Below are positions 41,712 to 60,997 of a stretch of DNA of 62,857 nucleotides, one piece after another (position 1 is the stretch's first letter; each line of letters opens with the position of its first letter). Both the position numbers and the translations under genes were made by a program. Location: the NCBI GenBank assembly GCA_035389045.1, contig DAOORA010000021.1:1-62857 (forward strand). The letters are read 5' to 3'. Under the pieces are notes generated by a model, which worked only from the letters and a program-made list of their open reading frames with translations, did no database searches and was not told the DNA's origin. Origin of the DNA: Bacteroidales bacterium. GTDB taxonomy: Bacteria > Bacteroidota > Bacteroidia > Bacteroidales > CAIWKO01.

Positions 41712-43040
41712 TTAAATAATCTTTCCTTTCCATTTACCTTTTTTCAGATAGAGATAAGAAAAGACAAACAGCAATACGAAATACTGGATTTCCGTCAGCC
41801 AGGCGATCTCGAGCGGCATATTCATGACCAGGATCACAAAATAAACAAACAGGAGGTAAAACACTGTTCCGATAAGTTCAATGACCATGCTGACCCTTGT
41901 CCTGCCAGTACCAATGACTCCGCTGAAAAAATTCATGGTCAGTGAAAAAATAACCAGGGCGACCATTACCACATAAAATGAATTCATGCTTTCGCTAATC
42001 AGGAGTGCATCGTTGGTATATAAAGAAAACAATTGATGCCTGAACATGACTGCCGGGATTACCAGTACCAGAATAGAAAAAAAGCACAACAGGGTGATCT
42101 TTTTTATCAGCGGTATCACATTTCCGGTATATCCTTTTCCGATGATGTTGCTGACCAAGGTGCTTGTTGCGGAGCCAAAAGCCCATCCCGGTATCATCAG
42201 AAACAGATATATGCTGCGTACGATATTGGTGATTGCCAGTTGATGAGGCCCCCGGTGCTCTATTACAAGAAAAAATACGAACCACGAAGCTAGTGATACC
42301 ACATGCTGAAGGATGATAAAACCGGAAACATCCAGGATGTTGCGGATCTCACTGAAGTTATATTTTTTTCGCCGGAACAGATGATACTTTTTCAGGTCAA
42401 TATATTTGAAGGTTACGGCAACATAGAACAGCGCTGAAGCAAATTCTGCGATCACGGTAGCAACGGCAGCACCGACAATACCCATATGCGGAAAACCGAA
42501 TTTGCCGAAGATCAGCAGATAGGCAAAGATCACATTTACTACGGCTATCACCAATGAGTTTGCAAGCAAAAACTTTGTTCTGAAAAGACCTGTGTAGAAA
42601 GCCCTGAAAGCACAGCCCAGGTAAGTAAAAAAGATGCCCAACAACCTGTATCTTACATATAGCTGTGTTTGTTCAAATACTTCGCCTGAAGACAGTATTC
42701 TGCTAAATACCGGAGAAAACAACAGTTGGGCCACCACAAAAACAACTAAGGCTGCAGCCATCAAAAATATCACACTGATCTCGAAGACGCTGCCGACCTG
42801 TTCATATTTTTTTTCACCCAGCCGCCGTGAAATAATGATTTGCGTGCCAATGCTAAACCCCAGGCCGATAATAAACAGTAGTACATAAAAAGTTCCTCCG
42901 ATTGCTGCGGCGCCCAGTTCTGCCTCTCCGATGCGTGCCAGGAAAACAGTATCGGTAACATTGATGATGTTTTCGGCAAAAAGTCCCAGGATAATGGGAT
43001 AGGTAAGCGCCCAGATGGCTTTATTTGAAGGGAGTTTCAA
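41712..43040 (-). CDS. MATE family efflux transporter
   Basis: PIILG..ENIINVTDTVF, FGFPHMGIVGAAVAT, ~12 TM. Confidence 0.92.
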   Translation of the reverse strand: MKLPSNKAIWALTYPIILGLFAENIINVTDTVFLARIGEAELGAAAIGGTFYVLLFIIGLGFSIGTQIIISRRLGEKKYEQVGSVFEISVIFLMAAALVVFVVAQLLFSPVFSRILSSGEVFEQTQLYVRYRLLGIFFTYLGCAFRAFYTGLFRTKFLLANSLVIAVVNVIFAYLLIFGKFGFPHMGIVGAAVATVIAEFASALFYVAVTFKYIDLKKYHLFRRKKYNFSEIRNILDVSGFIILQHVVSLASWFVFFLVIEHRGPHQLAITNIVRSIYLFLMIPGWAFGSATSTLVSNIIGKGYTGNVIPLIKKITLLCFFSILVLVIPAVMFRHQLFSLYTNDALLISESMNSFYVVMVALVIFSLTMNFFSGVIGTGRTRVSMVIELIGTVFYLLFVYFVILVMNMPLEIAWLTEIQYFVLLFVFSYLYLKKGKWKGKII

Positions 43041-43229: not shown

Positions 43230-46200
43230 TTAACGGATAAGATTAACGATGCCTTTGAAAACATGATTTCTGCCGCTGCGGTCCGTCACATTTATCATGT
43301 ATACAAAGGTATACGGCGCTGTTGAGGTGTAGTCGTAATGATTATTGAAAGTTCCGTTCCAGCCTTCGTTAATATCCTCTGTATAGAAAATCTCACGGCC
43401 CCACCTGTCGTATATTGCCATGTAGTAGTTTTTTGTATCGCAGCCTTCTCCAACGGGTAAGAATATATTATTTTTCTCGTCACCATTAGGTGTAAAACTA
43501 TTCGGGATCCAGAAAACAAACGACTGATAAATATAAATATATTTCTGAACGGTATCCATGCAGCCATAAGCATCGGTAACAACAAGCGTGACCAGATACG
43601 AGCCTGTGTCGGAGTATATATGTCTCACCTGCCTTCCCGTATCGGATGCCTGGTCGCCAAAATCCCAGACCCAAAGTACATTGTCGCCTGTGGACAGGTC
43701 GTAGAAAAGCACTTCACCTTCATCAATGACCTTGTATTCCGGTCGGGTATAAAACGTGGCCACAGGAACCGGCTCGTTGTCGACGGTCGCGTTTGCGGCG
43801 CCGGTACAGCCGTTGTATTCCACTGTGACGGTATATGTCCCGGCGGCAAGCCCGGTGGCGGTTTGGGTATATTGAGGCGGAACCGTGTTCCATTCATACG
43901 TACAACCGGTATCCTGAATTAAAACGCTAGCAGTACCATTGTCAAAGCCACAAACAGCATTGGTTACCGAAGTGCTGACATTTAATGAGGGATAAACATG
44001 TATTTCGATGGATGCTGATCCGGTGCATCCGTTACTGTTGGCAGTTACAACATAAGTGGTTGTTGTTGACGGGTACACCGTGACCACAGAATCTGTGCTG
44101 GGGGGCAGGGTATTCCACAGATAAGATTGACCTCCGGTGGCGGATAGTTGAAGCGGGCTGCCCTGACAGACCGGGGTATTTCCGCTTATGACGACGTCCG
44201 GCACCGGAAATACCGGAACATTGACGTTGCCTTCAGCGGTACATCCTGATGCAGAGGTACCTGTAACGATATAGCTTGTGGTAATAACCGGATTTACAGA
44301 TAGAGAGCTTCCTGTAGCGCCTGTGTTCCAAACATAGGATGCCGCCCCGGCAGCTGAAAGCGCAGCGGATTGCCCTTCGCATAAGGTGGCCGGAGAAGCT
44401 GTTACAGTGATTACCGGTAAGGGGTGCACCACTACGTTGACATAAGCGCTGGCGGAGCAGCCTGCTGCTGAGGTTCCTGTTACGACATAGTTTGCGGAAC
44501 CGGCCGGGCTTACGCTGATGGAGACGCCGGTTGCTCCTGTGTTCCAGGAGTAGGTGGATGCACCGGCAGCTGTGAGGGTGGTATTTTGTCCTGAACAGAT
44601 CTCAGCTGGTGAAGCTGTTGCAGATACAGCTGGCAGTGGGTTCACCGTCACGCTGACGGAAGCACTGGAAGAACATCCTGCCGACGTGGTTCCCGTCACC
44701 GAATACGTTGTTGATGTGGCCGGGCTTACAGTGATGGGAGAGCCTGTGGCTCCTGTATTCCAGGAGTACGATGATGCGCCGCCTGCCGAGAGGGAAGCGC
44801 TTTGCCCGGAACATACAGTAGCAGGGGCGGCTGTTGCGGTGATTGCCGGTATCGGATTTACCGTTACGCTGACAGAGACGGTTGAGGAACAACCCGATGA
44901 AGTAGTCCCTGTTACTGCATAAGTTGTAGAGGAAGTCGGGCTTACCGTTATGCTTGCCCCTGTGGCTCCTGTATTCCACAAATATAATGATGCCCCGCTT
45001 GCTGAAAGCGTAGTGCTTTGCCCCGGGCATATGGCAGCGGGTGAAGCGGAAGCAGTTACCGAAGGTAGGGGCGTGACTGTGACACTGACGCTAGCACTGG
45101 AAGAGCAGCCTGCCGTTGTTGTTCCCGTGACGGAATATGTCGTTGAAGTGGTCGGGCTGACTGTGACAGGTGTGCCTGTGGCTCCTGTATTCCATAAATA
45201 GGAAGATGCGCCGCCTGCCGACAGCGAGGTGCTTTGTCCTGTACATATAGCCGCCGGGGAGGCCGAGGCCGTCACCGCTGGCAGTGGATTAACTGTAACG
45301 CTGACGGTAGCGGTGGAAGAGCAGCCTGCCACCGTGGTCCCTGTCACAGTATAGGTTGTTGAAGTGGTCGGGCTGACGGTGATGGGTGTTCCGGTGCTTC
45401 CTGTATTCCATGAGTATGATGTTGCCCCGCCTGCCGAAAGGGACGTGTTCTGACCCGTGCATATGGCAGCAGGTGTGGCCAAGGCCGTCACCACCGGCAT
45501 GGGATTCATGGTCACGCTGACGGTAGCGGTGGAAGAGCAGCCTGCCGCCGTGGTTCCTGTTACCGTATAGGTGGTTGCCGTGGTGGGGTTGACCGTGACC
45601 GATGATCCGGTTGCTCCCGTATTCCAGGAGTATGATGTTGCCCCGCCTGCCGAAAGGGATGTGTTCTGCCCCGGGCATATGGCAGCAGGTGTGGCTGAGG
45701 CCGTAACCACAGGCATGGGATTCATAGTCACGCTGACGGTTGCAGCGGAAGAGCAGCCTGCCGACGTGGTTCCCGTTACGGTATAGGTAGTTGCTGTAGT
45801 CGGGTTGACAGTGATTGGCGAACCTGTGGCTCCTGTATTCCATGAATAAGTGGATGCACCGCTTGCTGAAAGCGAGGTGCTCTGTCCGGGACATACAGCA
45901 GCAGGGGAGGCGGAGGCCGTCACTGTGGGCTGGGGATTTACCGTCACATTCGCTGAGGCGGAAGCGCTGCACCCGGAACTGTTACTCACGGTGACACTGT
46001 AAGTGCCGCTGTGTGAGTTGTTTACATTGGTAATTACCGGGTTTTGCTGACTGCTGGTGAAGCCGTTGGGACCAGACCATTGGTATTGTGCTGCCGGGGA
46101 AACGTTCAGATGAAGGTCATTACCGGTGCATAAAGGGGTGGTATAGGATGCTGTTGTAGCAGGAAGGGTGGTTACAAAGACCTGTACCGTATCCCATGCG

Positions 46201-47069
46201 GATTCGCACCAGGGATTGGTCACATGGACCACATAAGTATTCAGGCCGGCAACCTGTGCAGGGTCGGTGACATTTTGCGAGCTGTAATTGGTTCCGCTAT
46301 TCAGATGGGTCCACTGGAACTGATACACGGAAGTGTTAGCGGCATTGGTCAGCGCACAGGCGAGGGTGTAGCTATCGCCCTGGCATATGGTATCAGGCGC
46401 TGTCGCTGCAATCTGGGCATATTCAAGCGAGATGGTAGGATGTTTTGTGGGATCGGCAAATTCTTTGGTAGCGAAGGTGACTCTCCGGTAGGTAACTCCT
46501 TCGCCTACCTGTCGCATCAGAATGCCGTAATTGGGTATGCCGTTGCACATCCAGTCATACACAAGATTTGAAATGTCTACATGATAATCCTGAGTGGAGG
46601 GGTTCGGGACAGAAGAAGGCACCGTTATCTGCCCTGTGGTGGTGGTGGCCGGCTGATTGGCCCATGTGACTCCCAACTCCGTCCAGGCTGCGGTAATCCT
46701 TTGAATATAAAACTGATTATCGGTGGCAGAGCCTGTGTACCAGTCCGTTTCAGTGCTTCCAGTTGGATAGTAAAGGTTAAGCGTGGCTCTGTTATCATAC
46801 AGGCGGTGGGCAGCGGCAGGAATATTGAGATTGAAATTTGCCACACACCTTATGGTCCCCTGCCCGCAACCCAGGGCAACCCATGTCCAGACACTGGCCA
46901 GCATAATGGTTGACGAACCGTAATTGGTGGTCTGCCAGGTGGTACAGGGGCCTGTATTATTTATTTCTATCAACGCGTCTGCAGAACTGGGAACAACAAC
47001 TGTTTGGGCAAATGAGAAAAAAACAGAAAAAAACAAAGAAAAACAATACACAGTGGCTTTTTTTCTCAT
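43230..47069 (-). CDS. DNRLRE-like domain + eight 72-aa Ig-like repeats + PKD + T9SS type B CTD surface protein
   Basis: WTE..VTW.NQP; repeats AAICPGQ.TSLSAGGA.SYSWNTGATG; WDFGD; IPNSFTPNGD..N. Confidence 0.88.
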   Translation of the reverse strand: MRKKATVYCFSLFFSVFFSFAQTVVVPSSADALIEINNTGPCTTWQTTNYGSSTIMLASVWTWVALGCGQGTIRCVANFNLNIPAAAHRLYDNRATLNLYYPTGSTETDWYTGSATDNQFYIQRITAAWTELGVTWANQPATTTTGQITVPSSVPNPSTQDYHVDISNLVYDWMCNGIPNYGILMRQVGEGVTYRRVTFATKEFADPTKHPTISLEYAQIAATAPDTICQGDSYTLACALTNAANTSVYQFQWTHLNSGTNYSSQNVTDPAQVAGLNTYVVHVTNPWCESAWDTVQVFVTTLPATTASYTTPLCTGNDLHLNVSPAAQYQWSGPNGFTSSQQNPVITNVNNSHSGTYSVTVSNSSGCSASASANVTVNPQPTVTASASPAAVCPGQSTSLSASGASTYSWNTGATGSPITVNPTTATTYTVTGTTSAGCSSAATVSVTMNPMPVVTASATPAAICPGQNTSLSAGGATSYSWNTGATGSSVTVNPTTATTYTVTGTTAAGCSSTATVSVTMNPMPVVTALATPAAICTGQNTSLSAGGATSYSWNTGSTGTPITVSPTTSTTYTVTGTTVAGCSSTATVSVTVNPLPAVTASASPAAICTGQSTSLSAGGASSYLWNTGATGTPVTVSPTTSTTYSVTGTTTAGCSSSASVSVTVTPLPSVTASASPAAICPGQSTTLSASGASLYLWNTGATGASITVSPTSSTTYAVTGTTSSGCSSTVSVSVTVNPIPAITATAAPATVCSGQSASLSAGGASSYSWNTGATGSPITVSPATSTTYSVTGTTSAGCSSSASVSVTVNPLPAVSATASPAEICSGQNTTLTAAGASTYSWNTGATGVSISVSPAGSANYVVTGTSAAGCSASAYVNVVVHPLPVITVTASPATLCEGQSAALSAAGAASYVWNTGATGSSLSVNPVITTSYIVTGTSASGCTAEGNVNVPVFPVPDVVISGNTPVCQGSPLQLSATGGQSYLWNTLPPSTDSVVTVYPSTTTTYVVTANSNGCTGSASIEIHVYPSLNVSTSVTNAVCGFDNGTASVLIQDTGCTYEWNTVPPQYTQTATGLAAGTYTVTVEYNGCTGAANATVDNEPVPVATFYTRPEYKVIDEGEVLFYDLSTGDNVLWVWDFGDQASDTGRQVRHIYSDTGSYLVTLVVTDAYGCMDTVQKYIYIYQSFVFWIPNSFTPNGDEKNNIFLPVGEGCDTKNYYMAIYDRWGREIFYTEDINEGWNGTFNNHYDYTSTAPYTFVYMINVTDRSGRNHVFKGIVNLIR

Positions 47070-47284
47070 GTGTTCAATAGTTTAAGATCCCTGGATTTTC
47101 CGATCAGAATCTTTAGTGATTAATCATATCCATAATAAATAAACTCCAAATGCCAGAAAATACTTGTCAAAAATATAAAAATATAAGAACAGATGATATC
47201 GGTTCGGTGTAATTGAATACAGTATTAAATATTGCACACAGGGCATTAAAAGGATTAGACACAAACAAAATATTCGTGGCTGTG

Positions 47285-47336
47285 GTGGCGGCACGACTGA
47301 CTGCAGCATGAGCCTTTCACGCAGTCGTGCTGCCAC
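47285..47336. repeat. GC-rich intergenic stem-loop
   Basis: GTGGCGGCACGACTG-N22-CAGTCGTGCTGCCAC. Confidence 0.6.
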
Positions 47337-47410
47337 TTTCAGCCAGGCATATTAAGTTTTAAACGTTGCACAGCAGGATAGTAAAACGATTAGACAGTGA
47401 TTTTAAAACC

Positions 47411-49273
47411 TTACCTCAATATCGTGAGGGTTCCACTAAATTTATCTCCATTATCGGTGTTCAGGGTATAAAAATATACGCCTTCGGCCAGACCTTTCCC
47501 ATTCCAGTCGTTCTGATAATCATCACTATGGAAGATCACCTTTCCCCACCGGTTGAAAATGTATAGCGTGGAACCGGGAAAGTATTCCAGGTCTTTGATA
47601 TACAGCATATCATTTTTACCATCATCATTGGGTGTAATGATGTTAGGTATCACGATCTGTGGTATATAGCATGATATCGTAGATCCCGGGACAAAGACAT
47701 CTGTATTTCCGGTGCAGCCGTTTGAATCAGTGACGGTGACGGAATAGCTACCTGTTACTATTCCTGTAATGGTATCGCCGACATGTCCGTCGTTCCAGAC
47801 ATAGGTGTATGGGCTCACTCCGTTTACTGAGGTGGCAACCGCATAGCCGTCGCCTTTGCCGATGCATGTTTCATTTACCACCGCCACTGATGGCAAGGGC
47901 AAAGGCCATGTGACCACAGTGATTTTTGCGGTATCGCTGCATCCGAATGTATTGGTGACCGTGACAAAATAAGTGGAGGTATCCGTTACTATTACCGGTT
48001 CGGTTGAGGACGACCCGCCGGTACTCCATGAATATGCCGGCCCTCCGGAAGCGGAAAGTAAGACCGTGCTTCCCAGGCAGGCCAGGGTGTCACCGGTGAT
48101 AGCTGCAATAGGTTTGGCATGTATTGTAACATTCAGGGTCATCACCGTATCGCAGCCCAGGCCATTGCTGACCGTGGCTGTATAAATTCCGCTGTTGGAC
48201 GTCAGTACTCCGGCTATATCAGGGTTGGGCAGGTTGCTGTTAAATCCGTTGGGTCCGGTCCACTGGTAAAAGAGTCCCCCTGAAGCGGTCAGCAAAAGGG
48301 TATCTTCCTCACAGACAGGTGAATTATATGAAGCTGTTGCATTAGGCCTGGCAGCAACGTATACTTCGACTGTATCGCTGGCGGTCTGACACCAGGGATT
48401 GGAAACCTGAACCACATAAGTGTTCATTCCGGGAACCTGTGCGGGATCAGTGACGTTCTGCGTATTATATGTGTTACCAGTGTTCAGGTGAGTCCACAGG
48501 AACTGGTAAGAAGCAGGATTGTAGGCGTTGTTGAGCGAGCAGGATAGGGTGTAGTTGCTTCCTTCGCAGATGCTGTCAGGCGCTGTAGCGGCGATCTCTG
48601 CGTATTCAAGTGTCAGCGTGGGATGTTTTGCGGGGTCTGCAAATTCTTTGGTAGCAAAGGTGACCCTCCGGTAAGTAACCCCTTCACCAACCTGGCGTAG
48701 CATCAGCCCGTAATTTGGTGTGCTGCCGCATATCCAGTCATATACCAATGTGGAGATGTCAACGTGATAATCCTGGGTGGATGGGTTGGGAGTAGAAGAA
48801 GGTACGGTAATTTGTCCGGTAGTGGTGGTGGCTGGTTGATTATCCCAGGTCACGGCCATCTCTGTCCAAGGAGCTGTGATGCGTTGTATATAGAACTGAT
48901 TGTCGGTAGCGGTACCTGTATACCAGTCCGTTTCAGTGCTTCCGGTGGGGAAGAACAGGTTCAGCACCGCCCTGTTATCATACAGACGCTGTGGATCGGC
49001 AGGAATGTTCAGGTTGAAATTCACCACGGAACGTATCGTTCCCTGCCCGCAGCCCAGGGCATTCCATGTCCAGACACTGGCCAGCATAATGGTTGACGAA
49101 CCGTAATTGGTTGTCTGCCATGTTAAACAAGGCCCCGACACATTGATCTCGATCAAAGCATCAGCTGTAGTGGGAAGTACAATGGTTTGTGCAGTGGAAA
49201 AAAAAGCAAAGGACAGCAGAAAACTCATTAACAGAATTGTAGGTCTTATCTTCCTTGTTTGATGATTAAACAT
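47411..49273 (-). CDS. Paralogous DNRLRE-like + Ig-like/SprB-like + T9SS type B CTD protein
   Basis: N-terminal ~300 aa closely match 43230-47069; IPNIITPNDDGKND...FNRWG. Confidence 0.88.
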   Translation of the reverse strand: MFNHQTRKIRPTILLMSFLLSFAFFSTAQTIVLPTTADALIEINVSGPCLTWQTTNYGSSTIMLASVWTWNALGCGQGTIRSVVNFNLNIPADPQRLYDNRAVLNLFFPTGSTETDWYTGTATDNQFYIQRITAPWTEMAVTWDNQPATTTTGQITVPSSTPNPSTQDYHVDISTLVYDWICGSTPNYGLMLRQVGEGVTYRRVTFATKEFADPAKHPTLTLEYAEIAATAPDSICEGSNYTLSCSLNNAYNPASYQFLWTHLNTGNTYNTQNVTDPAQVPGMNTYVVQVSNPWCQTASDTVEVYVAARPNATASYNSPVCEEDTLLLTASGGLFYQWTGPNGFNSNLPNPDIAGVLTSNSGIYTATVSNGLGCDTVMTLNVTIHAKPIAAITGDTLACLGSTVLLSASGGPAYSWSTGGSSSTEPVIVTDTSTYFVTVTNTFGCSDTAKITVVTWPLPLPSVAVVNETCIGKGDGYAVATSVNGVSPYTYVWNDGHVGDTITGIVTGSYSVTVTDSNGCTGNTDVFVPGSTISCYIPQIVIPNIITPNDDGKNDMLYIKDLEYFPGSTLYIFNRWGKVIFHSDDYQNDWNGKGLAEGVYFYTLNTDNGDKFSGTLTILR

Positions 49274-49474: not shown

Positions 49475-50098
49475 TCATCTGTCGATAGCCCTGAATCCGC
49501 ATTTTTCAGCCAGTGGATAGTCTTCGTATATCCATTGAACTATTTTAGATGCTTTATTGGTTTTTACCGCCAGGAAATTGTTCTGTTCGTCCTGAAAAAG
49601 CATACCATTGCGGTCTTTTTTCTTTCTTCCTTTTAATTTATATTCGAGGAACAAAAGATCGGTGATGGTACCTTCGAGCCATGGTGTTTCTTTATCGTAT
49701 CCGGCGACCCAGCTGATTCTGGAGCCGCAACTGTCCATAAACTCCTCGAGTTTTTTGCCGACTTCGCAGGCACCGATCAGAATACCTTTGTTGTTGTGTC
49801 CGCCAGGGCCTTTTTTCATAGTTGATTTTGCCACCTTGTTCATGTTGATGCCTTTGATATATCCTTTGAGCCTACCCCCCTGGCCGTGGCCGGCTATGTA
49901 ACATATCTCCATCTCTTTGTGCCAGATGAAACGTTCCAGCCACATGGTGAGATCACTGGTATTATAATACATCCTGTAGCTAAGCGAGATATTGTTCAGA
50001 TTGGCCCAGCCCTGCATGAACAGACGGACACTTTGCTCGTTGCTCAGGTCCTGCGACCAGGGACACTCCAGTACCAGCAAACCTAATTTTTTTTTCAT
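49475..50098 (-). CDS. Caspase/CHAT-like (clan CD; DUF6642-like) protein
   Basis: LLVLECPW, CYIAGHG His, ILIGAC Cys, WVAGY....PW. Confidence 0.65.
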   Translation of the reverse strand: MKKKLGLLVLECPWSQDLSNEQSVRLFMQGWANLNNISLSYRMYYNTSDLTMWLERFIWHKEMEICYIAGHGQGGRLKGYIKGINMNKVAKSTMKKGPGGHNNKGILIGACEVGKKLEEFMDSCGSRISWVAGYDKETPWLEGTITDLLFLEYKLKGRKKKDRNGMLFQDEQNNFLAVKTNKASKIVQWIYEDYPLAEKCGFRAIDR

Positions 50099-50179
50099 GA
50101 ATATAACTTTAAACCAACTGTAAAAAAATCCGGCAGGAATATGATAAGAATAAAAATATGTAAATATTAAATATTATTA

Positions 50180-50464
50180 TCACTTGTTGTTCACATCCTG
50201 TTCCGTTTTATTCTCGTCGCCTTCAACAGTCATTTTATTATCCTTAGATGTAAAGGTTGGGTTGTTCACATCCTGTTGGGTGATGTTTTTGTTACCTTTT
50301 ACAGTAAGTGTATTGCTTTTGTCTTTCTGTTCCTTGTTTTTGTCAAACGACAGTTTGAATTTCTTCCAGTCAAAACTGACCGTACCGCTTTTGGCGACGA
50401 TGATCACTACAACAATGACGATCAGCCCGCCGGCAATCCAGAGTACTAATGGTGAAATACTCAT
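50180..50464 (-). CDS. Small single-TM protein with two C-terminal amyloid-like pseudo-repeats
   Basis: Hydrophobic residues 6-24; NTLTVKGNKNITQQDVNN and NKMTVEGDENKTEQDVNN. Confidence 0.75.
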   Translation of the reverse strand: MSISPLVLWIAGGLIVIVVVIIVAKSGTVSFDWKKFKLSFDKNKEQKDKSNTLTVKGNKNITQQDVNNPTFTSKDNKMTVEGDENKTEQDVNNK

Positions 50465-50521
50465 AATTTTTAGTTTTTAGATTAATAAAAGTTTGTATAT
50501 CAAATAGTAAATATCAAATAA

Positions 50522-52819
50522 TTATTTATTCATATTTTCCTGATCACGGATTTTCTGTTTTATACTTTCATTGATTTTTACCACCGTATCAATATAGGGG
50601 TGGCCTTTTGGCAGTAACTTCTGATAAACCTCCACAGCTTTATCAGACAATTCCAGTGCCTGCTCATACTCGCCCAGCGCTTCAAGTACTAAAGCGAGGT
50701 TGGAATAGCTCATAGCGGTATCCGGGTGATCTTTTTTATAATTGTTTTCAAAGACCTTCACCGCATGTTCAAGTTCTGTTTTTGCTCCCTGAACATCGCG
50801 TAGTTTGAATAATACGGTAGCCAGGTTCAAACCGGCCTTTGCGGTATATGGATGATCTTCACCATAGTTCTTTTTCATGCTGCGGGTACATTTCTCCAGC
50901 AGTATTTTTGCACCTTCAAAATCGTTCATCTCCCTGAGCAATAAGGCGAGGTTGGAATAATGGATGGCCGTTGCGGGATGATCTTTTCCATGGTTTTTTT
51001 CATCACTGACGATCACTTTTCTGTAAAGTTCTGCTGCAAGCTCTTTTTCGCCTGTGTATTTAAGCGCTATGGCCAGGTTTGCATAATGATTAGCCGTTAT
51101 GGGGTGCTCCTGTCCAAAATTCTTTTCATCAGATTGTACCGATTTTTGCATGAAATATTTTGCACCTTCATAATCAGCGAGGTCGAGCAGCACCATGGCC
51201 AGGTTGGAATAACTCACAGCTGTTTCATGGTGTTCTGGTCCAAAGTTTTTCTCGTCGCTGGCCACCACCTTTTCCAGAAGTATCTTTGCTTGTGCTGGAT
51301 TACCAATATCTTTTAAGGCTACAGCCAGCAGGTTCTGCAGTTCTGAAATCTTTTTCTCGTCTTCATTCAGCAGGTTTTCCTGTGTTTCCATTACCGCCAG
51401 CAAAGACTTTCCGTAAGGTATCCACGGAAATCTTGTTGCCGGATTATCTTTGGTCTGGTCGGTGTTTAACCTGGCGCTGATCTGTTCTGCCAGATAGCCG
51501 ACATCCTGCAGGCTTACCGGTATCTGCATGAGCAGCACTCCGCCAATGATATGGTGCATTTTGTAACTGTCGTTCAGCGGATGTTTCATTAGCCAGCCTT
51601 TTCTTACCAACCGGTTCAGAAAGAGCGGGAGCTTCTTGTTCTCCTTGTCTTCCAGTATCAGTTCTTTAAGCAGATCATAGCCAATAAATGCTGAAGGCAT
51701 ACAGGCAAAATACTTCATCACACGGATCTCTTCCTGCTCAAGCCGGCTTAAATTAAAAAAAGAACTCAGGTAGGTGCCGATGCGGTAAATGGTGTTATCC
51801 GAATGATACATATCCGGAATTTCGGTGTCCAGGTTTAAGGCAAGTGCATTGCTCAGTTCCTCAAAGGTGTAATCGATATTTTCTGCCGTTTTTGCCAGGA
51901 TCTCGATCGTAAGGGTATGGTATTCTACCGACCTGACCAATGCTGCAATCTGTTCACCGGTTAATTTAGCGCGTGAGTAATGCATTTTAAAGAGCTGCAT
52001 AGCATCATCATGGGGTAACGGATCTGTCTGCATCAGGCTAAAACCGTTGAGATGCAGCTGCGAGGTAATCAGGACATGCCACAGCGGCTGTTTGGGCAAA
52101 TTGTTCCTGTGAGTTTCCATCGTAATGCCGGCATTATCAATAATCAGAAGGCAGGGGCCTTCATCAAAAGTCTTTAACTTACGCATGATCTCGCTGAATA
52201 TTTCAGCAGGCTTTTCCAGCTCACTACTGATCGAAAGATTATTCAATAATGCCTGATCCCGTGCAAAATCGGGAATGATATCATCCGAAACCTGTTGCAC
52301 CCACACTATGTGTTTATAATGGTCCCAGAAATTGTGCATATAATACTGCGCAAGGGTGGATTTTCCGATGCCTTCCATGCCATGAATGACCACCATCTGC
52401 CTGCCGTCCCACAACATTTCATGCAAGGCTTTCACTTCGGCAATTCTGCCGATCAGGCTGTCCTGTTCAACAAAGGGGATATTACCGCTGAGTTCTTTGG
52501 GGAGCTTACCAGCGGCATCATAATGATAATGGATTTCATCGCCTATCCTTACGGATGTTGCATTGATATTACCCTGAACCAGATTTTTTTGGATGCCTGT
52601 TCCCTGTATGAGGTTTTTGAAAAGTTCCGTGAATTTATCCGATTGTTCTTTTACTATCTGTTGTATCACCGCAATTTGCTCATTGTTGAGTTGCTGCAGC
52701 TTTTCAAGAACATCGGGATCATGGGCGTTTATAGTGATAGTGGAATTATTGCTGTTCTGGACAACGATATTTCCGGCTCCGTCTATTTTGACATCATTTT
52801 TATTTCCAAAGATACCCAT
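50522..52819 (-). CDS. STAND/NB-ARC NTPase with C-terminal TPRs (NLR-like) and N-terminal amyloid-like motifs
   Basis: Walker A GMEGIGKST, Walker B LLIIDN, VLITS, YKMH; 42-aa TPRs G..HP.TA..Y.NLA. Confidence 0.9.
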   Translation of the reverse strand: MGIFGNKNDVKIDGAGNIVVQNSNNSTITINAHDPDVLEKLQQLNNEQIAVIQQIVKEQSDKFTELFKNLIQGTGIQKNLVQGNINATSVRIGDEIHYHYDAAGKLPKELSGNIPFVEQDSLIGRIAEVKALHEMLWDGRQMVVIHGMEGIGKSTLAQYYMHNFWDHYKHIVWVQQVSDDIIPDFARDQALLNNLSISSELEKPAEIFSEIMRKLKTFDEGPCLLIIDNAGITMETHRNNLPKQPLWHVLITSQLHLNGFSLMQTDPLPHDDAMQLFKMHYSRAKLTGEQIAALVRSVEYHTLTIEILAKTAENIDYTFEELSNALALNLDTEIPDMYHSDNTIYRIGTYLSSFFNLSRLEQEEIRVMKYFACMPSAFIGYDLLKELILEDKENKKLPLFLNRLVRKGWLMKHPLNDSYKMHHIIGGVLLMQIPVSLQDVGYLAEQISARLNTDQTKDNPATRFPWIPYGKSLLAVMETQENLLNEDEKKISELQNLLAVALKDIGNPAQAKILLEKVVASDEKNFGPEHHETAVSYSNLAMVLLDLADYEGAKYFMQKSVQSDEKNFGQEHPITANHYANLAIALKYTGEKELAAELYRKVIVSDEKNHGKDHPATAIHYSNLALLLREMNDFEGAKILLEKCTRSMKKNYGEDHPYTAKAGLNLATVLFKLRDVQGAKTELEHAVKVFENNYKKDHPDTAMSYSNLALVLEALGEYEQALELSDKAVEVYQKLLPKGHPYIDTVVKINESIKQKIRDQENMNK

Positions 52820-53087: not shown

Positions 53088-53160
53088 GCGGTAGTAGCTC
53101 AGATGGTAGAGCATCAGCTTCCCAAGCTGAGGGTCGTGGGTTCGAGCCCCATTTACCGCT
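53088..53160 (+). tRNA. tRNA-Gly(CCC)
   Basis: Acceptor GCGGTAG/TTACCGC, D-arm, anticodon loop TTCCCAA, GGTTCGAG T-loop. Confidence 0.95.
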
Positions 53161-53198
53161 CAAAAAAAACCGGTTCAAAAATGGGCCGGTTTTTTATT

Positions 53199-53270
53199 GC
53201 TCAGTTGGTAGCCCCGCCAAGGCGGGGTCCCAAGCTGAGGGTCGTGGGTTCGATCCCCATTTACCGCTCA
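53199..53270 (+). pseudogene. Degenerate duplicate of tRNA-Gly with an inserted palindrome
   Basis: GCTCAGTTGGTAG + CCCCGCCAAGGCGGGG + 3' half identical to tRNA-Gly except one base. Confidence 0.8.
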
Positions 53271-53336
53271 AAAAGCCGGAACAATTTGTTCCGGCTTTTA
53301 TTTTTTATACTTTTGATGCTTTAATAATCATTTCTG

Positions 53337-55374: not shown

Positions 55375-56268
55375 TTATTGATGCTCACTGAATTGGAGTC
55401 GGTGTCTGTCTAAATAATCAAAATTATATTGACTTAAATTGTTAATCTTTTCAGTGCCCGTAACACCAATTTTTTCATATGCTTTAAATTCTATGGCGTT
55501 CGATAATATAATTTTTCCTGAGTTTTCAAAACTGATAAGGTGTCTGTCAAATAAAGCATCATAAGTCGGGGATAAAAGTATTCCATTGTGCACGTCAAGC
55601 CGTTCATTATCATCTGAATCAGACCAGGGAACAATGTGTGAAGCAATTAATACATCAAGCTTATCAAAACCAGTGACAGCACATTTATACTCCCACCTAT
55701 GTATAATTCGTTTTCTATAAGCCCCTTGTCCTACACGTGAGGTCACTAAGCCGGACCTCTCTGTTACGTTGGGTGGAGAAATGCCGAGCTCCAGCAGGGG
55801 TTCTGCTACCATTAGTTTTTGATTAAACAAATCTGGTTGTACGGGCACATAGGCTCCCTTTCTTTTGAAAAAGAATTTAATCCCTACACGAAGGTTCCCA
55901 CCTGTGTCATGGGTTTCAAAATAATCAAAATCGAATATTTCCACTTCAGATTTAAACCGGACGTATCCTTTGGTCTCGCTCTCAAAAAGAAAAACCCGTT
56001 TACCGTGATTAAGATGTTCTCTTAAAGCAAGATTACCTTTTGTGAATTGCATATCACCTGATTGACCTTCTCCGGTATATGTAAAAATATTAGGATTATC
56101 CCAGCCATCAGCATAACCATGTTGTTTGCCGGATTTTCCAGTAAATATAAAGATATATGGGTATTTTGAAGAAGGACAAATACCACCTTGCCAATTCCCA
56201 CCGTAAATAGCATGAATATCATTTCTTCTATTATAGATATGTTCAGGAATGAATGGTATTTGATTCAC
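55375..56268 (-). CDS. SRA-like + HNH endonuclease (putative type IV modification-dependent restriction)
   Basis: IH..YGG..QGGI, HGY.DGW, YTGEGQ.GDM...GN; HNH CAVTG...ASHIVPW...NGILL...D.LFD. Confidence 0.85.
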   Translation of the reverse strand: MNQIPFIPEHIYNRRNDIHAIYGGNWQGGICPSSKYPYIFIFTGKSGKQHGYADGWDNPNIFTYTGEGQSGDMQFTKGNLALREHLNHGKRVFLFESETKGYVRFKSEVEIFDFDYFETHDTGGNLRVGIKFFFKRKGAYVPVQPDLFNQKLMVAEPLLELGISPPNVTERSGLVTSRVGQGAYRKRIIHRWEYKCAVTGFDKLDVLIASHIVPWSDSDDNERLDVHNGILLSPTYDALFDRHLISFENSGKIILSNAIEFKAYEKIGVTGTEKINNLSQYNFDYLDRHRLQFSEHQ

Positions 56269-56282
56269 TGGTTAGTTACTTT

Positions 56283-59264
56283 TCAATAATACTCTTTTAT
56301 ATACTCATACGCCCGGTTAAACAAATCTTCGTCTTTAATCTGGTACTTTGTCCACAGGACTTTTCTGAGTTCTCGTTTTACTTCACGTTCCCCTACTGTG
56401 GAATGTTGCCAGCCATCAAATCGAACATAGCGAACGATCTCATCAATGTCATTTACAATTCGCTCAACTATGGCAGGGGTTGTATCCGTTTTAAGTTCAA
56501 GGAAAAGCTCGGTGAGAGCGGCTTTTGCAGATTTCTGTACTTCCAGCGGCTCCGATTGCTTTTCGGCCTGGAGTGTTTCTTTTGCAATCTGGCAAAGTTC
56601 TTTAATGAATTCAATTGAGTTGATCAATCCTCTTTCAGCCTTATCCCGTAATTCTTCCAGTCGTTCGCTAAGTTTTTTGAACGTTGGATGATTTCCATGT
56701 TTGTGTAATCTGCTGATGAGTATTTTCATTATTTTCTCAGCTTGCTTCGGGTCTTTCTTGTTCATCAATTCATCCAGCACTTCCGCATCGAGTATGACTT
56801 CTTCCATTTCATGATTGATTCCAGTTACATGGATGTGCTCATGGATCAAAGCAGTTGTCTGAGCTCCCAGTGCGTGCCATAATAAACGGCCATTATCATC
56901 TGAGGCCGGCTTAACGGAGGTGTAAACCTGGGACAGCCACCTGTAATTTTTTTGGTACTGGTTAAGTAGGTCATCCGGGGACAAGGCTTCCCAAAGCTTT
57001 GAAAGGCTGCTGAAGTCTTTCGCAAACGCATCTCTTTTCTGATTGGTGTTGATACAATCCTGTGCTTTCTGTAAACCTTCAAAACCCGCAATAGTCCTGT
57101 CAATGCCGGGAAAATGTGCAATACATTTATCCATCCATTCAGGTAGCTTATCTTTCAACTCCTGCAAATTTGTTATGACGGCTTTTACACTTTCTTCGTC
57201 AAATGCAAGAGCTTTCGCTGTATCATCAAATACTCCGAAATAATCTACAATTCTGCCAAAGGTCTTATTCGGAAAAAGCCTGTTGGTTCTGCATATTGCC
57301 TGCAACAGCGTATGGTCTTTAAGAGATTTGTCCAGATACATTGTCTGTAAAATCGGCGAATCAAAGCCGGTAAGAAGTTTAGCCGTAACAATCAGAAATT
57401 TGAGGGGTGATTCAGGATCATTGAATTTTTCAACCACTTTTTCCTGTTTATCCTTGTCCATTCCCCATTTCTGCTTGAATTCGAGTTCATCATTTGCAGA
57501 TGTGCTGATTACAACTTCACTCGCATCAGGTGAAAGCAGTTTGTCAAGCTCATCTTTATAAAGGATGCAGGCAAATCTGTCCGGGGTTACAATCATAGCC
57601 TTTAATCCTTCCGGCTCCACATGCTGCTTAAAGTGTTCAATAATATCCTCACAAATAGTTTTCACTCGTTCAGGTGATTTCAGGAATACCGACATTTTCG
57701 CCGCCTTTTGACTTAGCTTGTTTCTGTCGTCATCACTCAGATCATTGGCCATCTCTTTGAACGCAATATCCAGGCATTCTTTATCAATGTGATAGTCGGG
57801 GAGGCGTGGCTCAAAATGGAGAGGCAATGTGGCATTGTCCCTGATACTTTCCTGAAAGGTGTACCTGCTCATATACCCATCCGTGTCTTCATCTGCTCCA
57901 AAAGCCCAGAACGTATTCTTATCTGCCCGGTTGATGGGTGTTCCGGTGAGACCAAATAAAAATGAGTTCGGCAAAGCGGCTCTCATTTTTCTTCCAAGAT
58001 CACCTTCCTGCGTTCTGTGGGCTTCATCCACCATTACAATGATATTCTCCCTGGTATTCATATTGGGATAGGATTCCTTGAATTTATGAATCATTGTGAT
58101 AATGATTTTTCTTGAATCCTGCTCGAGTAGTTTATGAAGTTCCCTGATACTATCAGTTGTTACCATGTTCGGGACTTCAGCGGTATTGAATGTTGCAGCA
58201 ATTTGCGTATCCAGATCAACCCGATCAACTACAATGATTACGGTGGGATTATTCAGAGCCTGCTGTTTGCGGAGCTTTTGTGCCGCAAATAACATCAATA
58301 ATGATTTGCCGGAACCCTGAAAATGCCAGATAAGTCCTTTCTTAATCCTGCCGTCTTTCACTCGTTCAACGATAGCGTTGGCGCCCTCATATTGCTGGTA
58401 ACGACACACAACTTTTATCTTTTTCTTTTTGGTGTTTGTGGCATAAACGGTGAAGAATTGGAGGATGTCAAGCAGTGTTGACGGCTTTAACAGATGGGTA
58501 AGTTGTTTGGCCACATCATCCAGGCTAAGCAGGTGGCTTATTTCGTCCTTTTCATGTTCTAAACGCCAGGGAGCCCAAAACTCTAAAGGTGTCCTTACGG
58601 CCCCGATAAAAATCTCTTTCCCTTCTGTTGCAAAGGAAAACACATTAGGAACAAATAGCTGCGGTATAGTGTTCTCATAGATTACGTTGATATCATGTGC
58701 AGCATCGTACCAGCTTATGGCAGGGCGTACAGGTGTTTTGGCTTCGCCAACAACAAGAGGAATACCGTTCACAAACATAACGATGTCAGGTATTTTAACT
58801 TCCCTGACTTTCATTTTAAACTGATTAGTGAGAAGAAAAGAATTCTGAGCTAAATCTTCATAATCGATCAACTTTACAATAACATGTTCATTGTTTTTGC
58901 CAATAGGTAAAGACACTTCATTGCGCAGCCACTTTGAAAACTCCTCATTAGCCCTTACAAGGCCAACATTGTGCACGGTAATTAGTATTGCACGGAGTTT
59001 ATGAATAACATCATCAGCTTTATCCGGATTTGCTTGAATTTGAGGGTTCAGTTTGCAAAGCGCCTTTTTTAATTCAGATTCTAAAAGGACATCGGTTGTA
59101 TCTCTCGGAAGTAAATCAGGCTGAATATAATTCCATTTTGCTGCATCTCCATAAGCAACCGGTTCTTCATTCACAGTTCCGGAAGCCGTTACATTATTCA
59201 GGTTAACACCGGTTAATTGGTGAATCAGAAAATGTTCGACACTATTTTGTTCGTTGAAAGACAT
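56283..59264 (-). CDS. hsdR: Type I restriction enzyme R subunit
   Basis: PDIVMFVNGIPLVVGEAK, WHFQGSGKS, DEAHR, TGTP, LLTGFD, LLQAICRTNR. Confidence 0.97.
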   Translation of the reverse strand: MSFNEQNSVEHFLIHQLTGVNLNNVTASGTVNEEPVAYGDAAKWNYIQPDLLPRDTTDVLLESELKKALCKLNPQIQANPDKADDVIHKLRAILITVHNVGLVRANEEFSKWLRNEVSLPIGKNNEHVIVKLIDYEDLAQNSFLLTNQFKMKVREVKIPDIVMFVNGIPLVVGEAKTPVRPAISWYDAAHDINVIYENTIPQLFVPNVFSFATEGKEIFIGAVRTPLEFWAPWRLEHEKDEISHLLSLDDVAKQLTHLLKPSTLLDILQFFTVYATNTKKKKIKVVCRYQQYEGANAIVERVKDGRIKKGLIWHFQGSGKSLLMLFAAQKLRKQQALNNPTVIIVVDRVDLDTQIAATFNTAEVPNMVTTDSIRELHKLLEQDSRKIIITMIHKFKESYPNMNTRENIIVMVDEAHRTQEGDLGRKMRAALPNSFLFGLTGTPINRADKNTFWAFGADEDTDGYMSRYTFQESIRDNATLPLHFEPRLPDYHIDKECLDIAFKEMANDLSDDDRNKLSQKAAKMSVFLKSPERVKTICEDIIEHFKQHVEPEGLKAMIVTPDRFACILYKDELDKLLSPDASEVVISTSANDELEFKQKWGMDKDKQEKVVEKFNDPESPLKFLIVTAKLLTGFDSPILQTMYLDKSLKDHTLLQAICRTNRLFPNKTFGRIVDYFGVFDDTAKALAFDEESVKAVITNLQELKDKLPEWMDKCIAHFPGIDRTIAGFEGLQKAQDCINTNQKRDAFAKDFSSLSKLWEALSPDDLLNQYQKNYRWLSQVYTSVKPASDDNGRLLWHALGAQTTALIHEHIHVTGINHEMEEVILDAEVLDELMNKKDPKQAEKIMKILISRLHKHGNHPTFKKLSERLEELRDKAERGLINSIEFIKELCQIAKETLQAEKQSEPLEVQKSAKAALTELFLELKTDTTPAIVERIVNDIDEIVRYVRFDGWQHSTVGEREVKRELRKVLWTKYQIKDEDLFNRAYEYIKEYY

Positions 59265-59768
59265 TTATTCTATAATGATTTCTGCATCAAACTGAATTCT
59301 CATGTTATATTTTGAACTAAAATATTGACGTTGTTCAGCGTTTGAGTTCTGAAATGCAGGGAACTGATGTTTTCTATTAGCTACAATTGCTTTACGTTTT
59401 TTAAAATGGTAATAGATATCGGGTATTTCTTCAATCATTTTTTTTGCAATATTTTCTATCTGGGATAGTCCTTCAGATTGCCACGAATCTCTTTTATTCT
59501 TTAATTCTACAAATAAAAGCGTTGAATTATACGAAAGCATGCAATCACAACGACTATCCATTTCCCCATTTTCTCTATAAACGTCAATACAGTTGTCGAT
59601 GGCAGTAAAACTAATCGTCCTGCATTCAGTATTAAGAATGGTTGCATTCCATGAGGGCTCATCAGTTAGTTTTATTTTTACTGGAGTTTTGTCCTCCGCA
59701 TCATACAAGCCGAATTTCTTTTCGCTTGTTGTTTTTTGACAAACAGTCTTAAAGAAATCTATGCTCAT
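59265..59768 (-). CDS. Hypothetical protein, PD-(D/E)xK-like, partner of AAA ATPase
   Basis: RCDCML...LFVELK...LSQI; 4-bp overlap with the ATPase gene. Confidence 0.65.
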   Translation of the reverse strand: MSIDFFKTVCQKTTSEKKFGLYDAEDKTPVKIKLTDEPSWNATILNTECRTISFTAIDNCIDVYRENGEMDSRCDCMLSYNSTLLFVELKNKRDSWQSEGLSQIENIAKKMIEEIPDIYYHFKKRKAIVANRKHQFPAFQNSNAEQRQYFSSKYNMRIQFDAEIIIE

Positions 59769-60997
59769 AATCCTTCTTCAATGTCTAATAGTGAATCAAA
59801 TAAGAGGTTACCGTCTGCAAGTGATTGGTTCAAATAGTTTTTATCCAATGGAATGCCTTCGAAATTTCCAAGTTTCTTGATTGTACCATTACTCTCATCC
59901 AATTCGTAAATGGCAATTTCTTTAGGAGAAATAATTGACTTTATTGGGACTATCTCATTTAGCTTAATTGATTCTTCAGTGTTTTTTACTTTTTTTTCTA
60001 CAGTGAAGGCTTTTATCGCTAATGTCAAATAATTTATCAAATAGGGACTATGAGTTGTCATTATTAATTTGTTTCCTTCGTTCATGTTATTAAATTCAAG
60101 CAAACTGTTCAGCATTTGTCTTTGTGATGCAGGAAACAAATTTTGTTCGGGTTCTTCAATAATATTAACAAATAATCCATTACGATATTTGTTGGGTATT
60201 GTTTTTAATAAAAATCTCTTCACTTCGTCAGGCATGGCTGCATCCTTTATAATCTCCTCAACTTCTTTTTGCATTTTCTTTTGAGCCTCATAACTCATTT
60301 CATTTATAGTCGGATCTTTTTCTTTTTTAATTGAGTTTGCAAGATTTTTTGAAACTAAAAAAAGTGGCACAAAAGATTGAAACCCGCTCGAAGTTTCGGA
60401 TAATTTTAGTTTATATCCACTTCCAATTACATTAGCAGTTTCATTAAGTTTATCAAAATAAAATTTAGCTTTACCAATCGGCAATTCAAGACTATCTGAT
60501 AGTTCATTTTGAGAACGTTCCATCTCTTCAATAAAAGTAAAGAGTGATTTTGGAAGTTCTGGTATTTTTCGGAGATTACGTAGTTTAACAGCACTTGAAA
60601 AATTCCTCTCAGCAGGTACATACATTATTTTCGGAAGGACATATTGCTTACTTATCCTTCCAACTATTTTAAATCTTTCTTTTTTATAAGTGAATGTAAA
60701 TGACTCTCCCTCAAATTCTATACTCGTACTGCCATCCTTTTGAAAGTAATTTAATAAGTTGTGATAAGCACAAAGGTTTTCAAATGTATTTTTATATTCA
60801 ATTTTTTTTCGTAGCAAATCTCCTCTTACCAACGCCTTTTCAATCCATGTCAGAGTCGAAATCAACTTTGCCACAGTGCTTTTGCCCGAGCCCTGATTCC
60901 CTATAAAAACAGTAACCTTTTTCACATCAATCCAGCCATCATTATCAATGCATCCTTTTTTGACAGGTCCAAAATTTTTTATTTTTATTCTGCTCAT
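59765..60997 (-). CDS. AAA_15/AAA_21-type (ABC-like) ATPase
   Basis: IKNFGP, GNQGSGKST, YVPAER, SSGFQS, IEEPEQNLFP, TTHSPY. Confidence 0.9.
   Translation of the reverse strand: MSRIKIKNFGPVKKGCIDNDGWIDVKKVTVFIGNQGSGKSTVAKLISTLTWIEKALVRGDLLRKKIEYKNTFENLCAYHNLLNYFQKDGSTSIEFEGESFTFTYKKERFKIVGRISKQYVLPKIMYVPAERNFSSAVKLRNLRKIPELPKSLFTFIEEMERSQNELSDSLELPIGKAKFYFDKLNETANVIGSGYKLKLSETSSGFQSFVPLFLVSKNLANSIKKEKDPTINEMSYEAQKKMQKEVEEIIKDAAMPDEVKRFLLKTIPNKYRNGLFVNIIEEPEQNLFPASQRQMLNSLLEFNNMNEGNKLIMTTHSPYLINYLTLAIKAFTVEKKVKNTEESIKLNEIVPIKSIISPKEIAIYELDESNGTIKKLGNFEGIPLDKNYLNQSLADGNLLFDSLLDIEEGL

Follow-up and report, generated by a model that had tools for sequence, protein, structure and literature searches.

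We analysed a 62,857-nt stretch of DNA from a Bacteroidales bacterium (assembly GCA_035389045.1, contig DAOORA010000021.1, GTDB group CAIWKO01), referred to here as the window. Three co-oriented open reading frames (ORFs) on its minus strand span positions 49475-52819 and encode proteins of 765, 94 and 207 amino acids (aa), with 57 nt between the first and second genes and 81 nt between the second and third. Each of the three genes is single-copy in the genome. An earlier reading of the sequence alone (the original prediction) had joined them in one immunity module comprising a nucleotide-binding oligomerisation domain (NOD)-like receptor (NLR), a small transmembrane (TM) protein acting as amyloid-forming effector, and a caspase-like protease. 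The shared orientation and close spacing from which it set out were confirmed. Our analysis favours a smaller unit: with a probability that we put at roughly 0.6, the cassette at 50180-52819, which holds the NLR gene and the 94-aa gene, is a two-gene, horizontally acquired NLR/effector unit of the amyloid-signalling kind. The features of the locus are listed in Table 1.

The 765-aa protein has the architecture of an amyloid-signalling sensor, that is, an NB-ARC or NACHT domain combined with TPR or WD repeats. Pfam matched NB-ARC at residues 129-217 (29.4 bits, cut-off 23.5) and, over residues 476-745, TPR_10 (153 bits, E 7e-46) and TPR_12 (141 bits). The NCBIfam FxSxx_TPR-like model matched residues 476-743, below its own cut-off. 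No enzymatic effector domain was detected in the NLR by Pfam. PADLOC recognised none of the NLR, 94-aa and 207-aa proteins, and neither Pfam nor NCBIfam has a family that the two smaller proteins match.

The 94-aa ORF is a real, conserved gene. A phmmer search of 1.84 billion representatives (E <= 0.001) returned 12 proteins. Apart from the query and a 997-aa repeat protein that is unrelated, these were ten small proteins of 78-116 aa. All ten have an N-terminal hydrophobic TM helix, a short linker and two repeats, and the conservation of this ORF, on which the original prediction had made itself depend, was thus established. The N, G and Q in both repeats are invariant across the 11 small proteins, and the 18-aa consensus that had been proposed from this one locus holds across the family. 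AlphaFold2 (AF2) modelled a single helix at residues 5-23, with a predicted local distance difference test score (pLDDT) of 81-84, followed by a low-confidence hairpin and then by a strand-turn-strand in each repeat (residues 49-56/61-65 and 74-81/86-90).

Only about 50 residues precede the effector repeats, fewer than the ~80-100 aa of a Bell or Babybell bundle. An hhalign comparison of the effector with ten Bell-like effectors of related NLRs gave a probability of 0.13%, and a PDB sequence search with the small-protein profile returned generic TM matches only. The earlier description of the effector as having one TM helix and no HeLo/BELL bundle therefore stands. We had considered the small protein as a reduced Bell domain, its 'ME[IL]SP...' start recalling 'MEPIS', and rejected this since hhalign shows no relationship; a hexapeptide left-handed beta-helix was rejected for the repeat as well, the hydrophobic spacing being unfit by eye. 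By the positive-inside rule, the lysine-rich segment behind the helix suggests that the N-terminus faces outward and that the C-terminal part lies in the cytoplasm; the repeats and the NLR would then share a compartment.

Two metatranscriptome libraries contained contigs with an identical match to the greater part of the small gene and to sections of the NLR and 207-aa genes, and one RNA-library contig (X5, record 18) runs from within the small gene into the 57-nt spacer. We take these contigs as a weak hint of expression and as no proof of transcription; the parts that they leave uncovered are uninformative. The small protein is rare. A word-index homologue search found the protein itself only, and a single-protein search of 400 other genomes of the same order gave no credible match (best non-self E 5e-4, within a 638-aa ORF). 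With a profile of the one-TM family, no member was found in 400 other genomes of the same class or in 400 other genomes of the same phylum. The family had no match by tblastn against plasmids or, using sub-alignment A3, in viral contigs, and a first metagenome scan for the small protein with sub-alignment A3 found none.

Table 1. Features of the NLR/effector cassette and its flanks in the window.
Feature	Position	Strand	Basis
NLR-like gene of the signal transduction ATPases with numerous domains (STAND) class, 765 aa: motif A, helical linker, motif B, NB-ARC, TPR	50522..52819	-	ORF, Pfam, relatives P0018 and P0019, 41 metagenome loci
Motif A on NLR, residues 8-25, NDVKIDGAGNIVVQNSNN	52745..52798	-	Top-scoring genome window against effector-repeat matrix
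Motif B on NLR, internal, residues 77-100, QKNLVQGNINATSVRIGDEIHYHY	52520..52591	-	Mostly invariant positions in alignment of three NLRs
NB-ARC/NOD region, ~residues 122-470 (C-terminal limit approximate)	51410..52456	-	Pfam NB-ARC, AAA_16 and nSTAND3 at residues 122-230
P-loop GMEGIGKST, residues 147-155	52355-52381	-	Read from ORF translation
Predicted TPR sensor region, ~residues 476-745	50585..51394	-	Pfam TPR_10 and TPR_12, 6 and 4 stretches
AT-rich spacer, 57 nt, NLR stop to small-gene start	50465..50521	-	
Small putative effector gene, 94 aa: N-terminal TM helix, short beta linker, two motif-A repeats	50180..50464	-	ORF, ten relatives, AF2
Predicted TM helix, effector residues 5-23	50396..50452	-	AF2; hydrophobic run LVLWIAGGLIVIVVVIIVA, then K-rich sequence; conserved in family
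Effector motif A repeat 1, residues 51-68	50261..50314	-	Alignment, charge covariation
Effector motif A repeat 2, residues 76-93	50186..50239	-	Alignment, charge covariation
Resident 207-aa caspase-fold gene flanking the insertion, outside the module	49475..50098	-	Synteny, fold, invariant H71/C111
Transfer RNA gene, tRNA-Gly(CCC), other flank of the insertion site	53088..53161	+	ARAGORN

The link between the two proteins is a short motif, called motif A here. As had been claimed, residues 8-25 of the NLR align without gaps to both effector repeats, with 7/18 identical residues and a BLOSUM62 score of 33 against residues 51-68, and 6/18 and a score of 29 against residues 76-93; the two repeats share 11/18 residues with each other. 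The pairwise match alone is modest, a score of 33 being reached by 11 of 3000 shuffles of the small protein. Because of this weakness, we built an ungapped motif matrix from 18 repeats of small-protein relatives, taken from other genomes only, and scanned with it all 18-residue windows of ORFs of >=100 aa in the six frames of this genome (1,716,918 windows). The NLR N-terminus (residues 8-25) ranked first of all windows with 21.3 bits, ahead of a runner-up at 15.5 bits. The genome's best match to the foreign effector repeats thus lies in the gene adjoining the effector.

Motif A is kept in the two NLR relatives that resemble this protein in the N-terminal region, P0018 (66% identity) and P0019 (50%), and N8, G14, G16, N17, I18 and V19 are invariant in the three NLRs. 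In P0018, motif A scores 32.9 bits on the matrix, as high as the effectors themselves. By these comparisons, the sharing of motif A is real and more than chance: a short motif common to the NLR N-terminus and the effector C-terminus is conserved in relatives, save for motif-A NLRs that stand beside effectors with another motif (motif B, described below). The arrangement of one copy at the NLR N-terminus and two at the effector C-terminus, in adjacent genes, also proved correct; it is the layout of HET-S/NWD2 and of the pairs that use bacterial amyloid signalling sequences (BASS). A second NLR/one-TM pair likely exists, as P0018 and the small protein P0020 (55% identical to the effector) come from the same sources, in records that are both 24,466 bases long.

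Pairing by motif A was also found outside this NLR clade. A profile search of 400 other genomes of the same phylum gave matches in four, all belonging to one distant family (f167), and a search of that family yielded 6/122 genomes (L093-L098; G801, G819, G429, G636, G620, G666). The f167 small proteins are 102-120 aa long, with two hydrophobic segments and two repeats of the motif-A type. In five of the six genomes, a TPR-only (coiled-coil/TPR) protein is encoded ~20 nt downstream of the small gene. It starts with M[EDN]WKWNHI[RK]I[EKD]G[ND]NN[LV]VLQD, which scores 23-25 bits on the effector-repeat matrix; in the sixth genome, the TPR gene is out of frame in its 5' part. As the motif occurs at adjacent f167 genes, it would couple sensor and effector despite unrelated sensor architectures. 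By eye, NLR residues 26-34 ('STITINAHD'), directly after motif A, resemble 'TTTIAIHAF' at the N-terminus of the f167 TPR proteins (L047 432-1478). This likeness suggests a conserved N-terminal module of ~30 residues, with three strands, and not of 18. At L049 and L050, a coiled-coil protein, perhaps of plasmid type, adjoins the f167 system.

The two effector repeats covary in charge. At identical positions of repeats 1 and 2 in the 11 small proteins, we counted 27 opposite-charge and three like-charge pairs. The observed excess of 24 was reached in 0/5000 re-pairings of repeat 2 among the proteins (mean excess 1.9), and the observed charge excess in 0/5000 within-repeat shuffles; as the 11 proteins are related by descent, these counts are not probabilities. 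With the register slid by +/-2, the opposite:like ratios were 12:10 and 12:8. The signs flip between proteins: at position 2, four proteins have K/E and three have E/K or E/R, and positions 9, 11 and 13 flip as well. Such compensatory flips are the pattern expected of two parallel, in-register stacked rungs of a beta-solenoid. In the HET-s solenoid, r1 and r2 are charge-complementary, with salt bridges between the stacked rungs, and in-register, complementary side chains of this two-rung type are what the covariation indicates here.

The resemblance between the two proteins could in principle be a product of chance or low complexity, the small ORF being no functional partner of the NLR. The low pairwise identity (6-7/18), the 11/3000 shuffles that attain the score and the failure of HMMER to make the link would fit such an origin. 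A conserved family, the first rank in the genome-wide scan, the second family with the same pairing and the charge covariation speak against it, and we regard it as most improbable.

Comparison with related genomes placed the boundaries of the unit. Orthologues of the 207-aa protein (61-88% identity) were found in 7/22 other genomes of the same family. In these relatives, the gene order is a MATE gene, the 207-aa gene and, 150-400 nt away, tRNA-Gly, and the NLR and small genes are absent; the same MATE-family gene lies at 41712-43040 in the window. NLR residues 1-470 were detected in 0/22 same-family genomes, and a contig scan with these residues gave one irrelevant 32-residue match. Because the NLR is absent from all 22 genomes and the flanks are conserved, the NLR and small genes are read as a two-gene insertion of ~2.7 kb between the 207-aa gene and tRNA-Gly. 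The putative effector is therefore the adjacent, collinear gene, on the same strand as the NLR, 57 nt from it and inserted jointly with it. By the same synteny, the 207-aa gene is an older, independent resident and no conserved partner of the cassette.

We modelled the 207-aa protein with AF2 (pLDDT 83, predicted template modelling score 0.84). In Foldseek, the model matched SAVED-CHAT 8tl0 best (E 1.7e-5), followed by MALT1, Craspase CHAT and caspase-11, with TM-scores (template modelling) of 0.5-0.6. Across 15 sequences of the family, H71 (within AGHG) and C111 (within G[AS]C) do not vary. The model and these residues indicate a clan CD (caspase/CHAT) fold with a candidate His-Cys dyad. The caspase-like assignment in the original prediction is thus upheld by the fold and the invariant His and Cys, but not by any match in Pfam, PADLOC or NCBIfam. 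The 207-aa family comprises 15 clusters of 204-225 aa; it is uncharacterised, appears to have a minimal caspase/CHAT-like fold and occurs as a stand-alone gene in the relatives.

The inclusion of this protease as third component was not borne out, since its orthologues stand beside MATE and tRNA-Gly without an NLR. A three-gene module, in which the protease would act with the NLR and the TM effector, for example by processing the fibre or by being activated by it, has in its favour the co-orientation, the 81-nt gap, a caspase/CHAT-like fold with invariant His and Cys, an RNA-library contig (record 17) that crosses the junction of the small and 207-aa genes, and the fact that CHAT domains are known partners of BASS motifs, according to the accessible text of two preprints (10.1101/2020.01.06.895854; 10.1101/2024.11.07.622273). 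We consider it very improbable: the 207-aa gene occurs in 7/22 family genomes without NLR or small gene and the NLR in 0/22, the 207-aa protein lacks motif A, the highest score of its 18-mers against that of the NLR being 15, and the 207-aa gene was seen in none of 41 related NLR loci.

These loci came from a metagenome scan with the alignment of the three NLRs, which gave 42 loci, one of them (L051) being the present one. We examined 28 (L052-L079) in detail, and scanned the remaining L080-L092 (identity <=31%) for motif A only. The original prediction had missed a second motif, motif B, which is internal in this NLR (residues 77-100), has the form ...KNIVxGxIxxVxxIxIGD... and is nearly invariant in the three NLRs. 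At 16/28 loci, the gene adjacent to the NLR encodes a protein with two C-terminal copies of motif B. Where complete, these partners are mostly helical proteins of 143-166 aa that start with 'MEPIS/MEPIT...' and are Bell-like, and the sister NLRs start directly with one motif-B copy. The accessible text of Ibarlosa 2024 (10.1101/2024.11.07.622273) ascribes a MEPIS-type N-terminal signature to Bell, Hell and Babybell domains. The adjacent motif-B effectors at 16/28 loci, mostly Bell-like proteins of the MEPIS type, place this NLR clade in the NLR/Bell paradigm.

The motif-B repeats are charge-complementary as well, with 37 opposite against eight like pairs (reached in 0/5000 shuffles). The polarity of whole repeats is swapped between proteins (L053 7294-7728, L054 7344-7778, L059 2918-3352, L055 199-681 and others), repeat 1 being basic and repeat 2 acidic in some effectors and the reverse in others. 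At L070, the gene at 214-882 (+), upstream of an NLR that starts with motif B, encodes a DUF4062/TIR_2-like N-terminal domain followed by two motif-B repeats. Motif B is therefore common to at least two effector classes.

Motif A was strong (25-37 bits) at the N-terminus of 7/28 related NLRs. No Bell-like or motif-B protein was detected in the present genome, which is 96% complete (best E 0.38), which leaves the small TM protein as the only candidate partner of this NLR. This bears on a further alternative, in which motif B is the main signalling route of the NLR, towards a partner that is unlinked or has been lost. The small TM protein would then be accessory, serve as a decoy or be a membrane peptide of unrelated origin that took up NLR-derived repeats. 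Motif B is almost invariant in the three NLRs and is the effector-shared motif at 16/28 loci, as this alternative would have it. The 96%-complete genome yielded no protein for such a partner, however, and the repeats of the small protein are conserved and covarying and find their genome-wide best match in the adjacent NLR, which makes this alternative quite improbable.

We compared the locus with known systems. According to the accessible text of Dyrka 2020 (10.1101/2020.01.06.895854), BASS pairs consist of an NLR and an adjacent Bell gene and are found mainly in Actinobacteria and Cyanobacteria; BASS motifs 1 and 6 are present in a single copy on the NLR, whereas the effector carries them as two or three pseudorepeats. 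As far as these pairs are described there, the locus resembles them in its NB-ARC/TPR NLR, in the collinear adjacent gene and in a short beta motif rich in N, G and Q, which the NLR carries at its N-terminus and the effector at its C-terminus. It differs from them in that the effector has no helical Bell domain of ~100 aa, only one TM helix of ~19 residues. It differs further in its gene order, with the NLR first, and in its host, whose type IX secretion genes are of a kind typical of Bacteroidota. When 11 signature 4-6-mers were looked up as exact strings in that part of the PMC8086366 supplement which could be searched, no BASS entry resembling motif A or B came up. The only strings to match were GNGNI, within a BASS3 entry, and IGDKE, within control fragments taken from the PDB, and the '...RIGD...' of motif B resembles, by eye only, the '...QIGD...' of BASS3 and of RHIM-like motifs (RHIM: RIP homotypic interaction motif).

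Like the fungal HET-S/NWD2 pair with its HET-s-related amyloid motif (HRAM), as far as the sources available in part describe it, the locus has one motif copy on the NLR and two linker-separated pseudorepeats on a membrane-targeting effector. Unlike that pair, it has no HeLo domain, no sequence similarity and an unsheathed TM helix, and its repeat is of 18 aa with a 7-aa linker. The HET-s repeat has 21 aa and a 15-aa loop.

The E. coli Bab/Agp system is an antiphage abortive infection (Abi) system with motif BASS11, for which the accessible text of Ibarlosa 2024 (10.1101/2024.11.07.622273) describes amyloid signalling shown experimentally. To the extent that it is described there, it shares with the present locus a small effector (Bab has 109 aa) with a hydrophobic helix at its N-terminus and an amyloid motif at its C-terminus, an adjacent TPR sensor with an N-terminal motif and a position near defence genes; the f167 pairs of a small TM and a TPR-only protein are similar in layout. 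It differs in the ~80-aa five-helix Babybell fold of Bab, which cups helix 1, against one helix and a beta linker here, in the single motif copy of Bab against two, and in its sensor, as Agp is of the TPR-GreA/B-C-PIN type and the sensor here is an NB-ARC NLR.

The locus can also be compared with the sister NLR/'MEPIS...' systems (L053, L054, L056, L059, L063, L064, L066, L074, L077 and others). They belong to the same NLR clade (35-51% identity), their motif B is also present in this NLR, and the two repeats of their effectors are likewise charge-complementary. They differ in sharing motif B with a helical effector of 143-166 aa, whereas motif A and a bare TM anchor are found here. The claim in the original prediction that this combination is not a described system was overstated: NLR/Bell BASS pairs and Bab/Agp are of the same kind, and relatives of this very NLR have Bell-like effectors. 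We found no description of a bundle-less TM effector with an amyloid-signalling motif in the literature searched, including the accessible parts of PMC13506858, PMC12881547 and 10.64898/2026.01.04.697583; the journal tables of Dyrka 2020 might list such effectors. From its gene content and sequence, the locus is probably a stripped-down relative of the NLR/Bell-type amyloid-signalling cell-suicide systems, with a bundle-less TM protein as effector.

The likeness to known solenoids also bears on an alternative in which the shared motif is a non-amyloid adaptor: a stoichiometric beta-sheet heteromer would tether the NLR to a membrane anchor or regulator, with no templating or polymerisation. Motif A is kept on NLRs whose adjacent effector lacks it and may act within the NLR, the effector repeats are highly charged and modelled by AF2 with moderate confidence only, and a closed beta-sandwich within one molecule would likewise be consistent with the charge complementarity between repeats 1 and 2. 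The one-copy/two-copy layout, the N/G/Q-rich beta-arch and the parallel in-register covariation, however, match HET-s-type solenoids as presented in the accessible text of 10.1101/2020.01.06.895854. A mere tether would also leave the system with no executioner, as the NLR has no effector domain of its own, and the class to which the sister Bell-like effectors belong was shown experimentally to use amyloid signalling (10.1101/2024.11.07.622273, accessible text). We consider the adaptor unlikely.

In the amyloid-signalling reading of the two-gene cassette, the TPR array would sense an invader-derived ligand and the NB-ARC domain would drive oligomerisation. Oligomerisation would gather several copies of the N-terminal 18-residue motif A into a stacked beta-arch fold, and this nucleus would template the two repeats of the 94-aa protein, pre-anchored in the inner membrane by its one N-terminal helix with the repeats in the cytoplasm. 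The two repeats would stack in register as two rungs, with molecules adding end to end. The TM helices would then be tightly arrayed, leading to membrane damage and abortive infection. In the HET-S, Bell and Babybell effectors, a helical sheath hides the membrane helix; the effector here has none.

In this reading, ligand sensing, templating, fibril formation, membrane damage and any anti-phage role are inferred. Several points weigh against it. If the TM helix is inserted constitutively, something would have to keep it from being toxic until the system is activated. AF2 confidence over the effector repeats is only 59-75 pLDDT, and a local HMMER search with a hidden Markov model (HMM) of the same 18 repeats did not place the NLR among the 15 best domains; judged from the two kinds of scan, the motif link between NLR and effector depends on full-length, ungapped scoring. 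Motif A of P0019 reaches only 11.8 bits on the matrix. Adjacency of an NLR and a one-TM small protein was seen directly only in this genome, the link between P0018 and P0020 being drawn from equal record length. The effector repeats are rich in K, E and D, unlike BASS, whose composition is depleted in K according to the accessible text of Dyrka 2020 (10.1101/2020.01.06.895854), and the f167 repeats have no significant charge complementarity (7 opposite against 5 like pairs, reached by 598/5000 shuffles). The chief counter-result, by the gene content of the related loci, is that motif A is not strictly tied to a motif-A effector in cis. Among the seven NLRs with a strong motif A, the surroundings are visible at L053, L054 and L055: the NLRs of L053 and L054 have a Bell-like/motif-B effector immediately downstream, the cut NLR of L055 has a motif-B Bell-like effector upstream, the weaker motif-A-like NLRs of L059 and L064 also adjoin Bell-like/motif-B effectors downstream, and a small ORF with motif A was found in 0/41 non-self loci. 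In systems of the L053/L054 type, motif A may have another role or a partner elsewhere.

A fuller reading, which joins both motifs, can be put forward tentatively, at somewhat less than even odds. It proposes a minimal form of amyloid-gated killing, in which the NLR polymerises a bare, single-pass, two-rung peptide into a membrane-disrupting array; the NLR would carry motif A for TM peptides and motif B for Bell-like effectors in tandem, and motif A would form a new family of amyloid-signalling motifs. In that case, the sheath of helices found in HeLo, Bell and Babybell domains would be dispensable, and one sensor clade could switch between, or drive, two effector classes; the tandem A-B arrangement suggests how sensors exchange effectors. 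The motif A family would be common to sensors of the NB-ARC and TPR-only types, from two families that are distant from each other within one phylum. In fungi, amyloid signalling from an NLR to a membrane effector is established; for bacteria, one case has been shown (Bab/Agp), and predictions concern mainly Actinobacteria and Cyanobacteria. The mechanism would thus be extended to a bacterium with type IX secretion genes, with a motif unmatched in the searchable published sets. At 94 aa, this would be the smallest conceivable effector, and would make it testable whether the bundle is a safety catch or whether polymerised anchored helices are sufficient. The in-register charge covariation allows specific and cheap mutational tests. 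For the caspase-fold neighbour, the record is corrected: it is an independent, uncharacterised resident gene.

The insertion site is variable, as the closest relative (G009; L012 2825-7177) carries other cargo between its 207-aa and tRNA-Gly genes, namely two different type IX secretion proteins. In the window, a second insertion at 43230-49273 parts the 207-aa gene from the MATE gene; it encodes two type IX secretion substrates (CHU_C/PKD) and has a guanine-cytosine (GC) fraction of up to 0.57. The stretch from the MATE gene to tRNA-Gly is a variable hotspot, with two separate insertions in this genome. No integrase or flanking repeat was identified at the hotspot, and the insertion breakpoints could not be placed since the intergenic DNA is too diverged. 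A sigma-70 promoter scan was uninformative (9 sites, 9.5 expected). Past the tRNA-Gly gene, a tRNA-like segment at 53228-53303 (+) is ~88% identical to the tRNA region of the relatives and received no ARAGORN call; a strong terminator-like hairpin (53271-53299) follows this second tRNA-like segment. At a distance of 2.5 kb lies a defence cluster (55375-62857, minus strand), which comprises an HNH endonuclease (PADLOC HNH E 1e-24), whose N-terminal part gives a weak SRA-like match, together with a type I restriction-modification operon of HsdR, HsdS and HsdM. Between hsdR and hsdS, this operon holds an AAA_15/AAA_21 ATPase gene (59765-60997) and a 167-aa ORF that belongs to no family (59265-59768).

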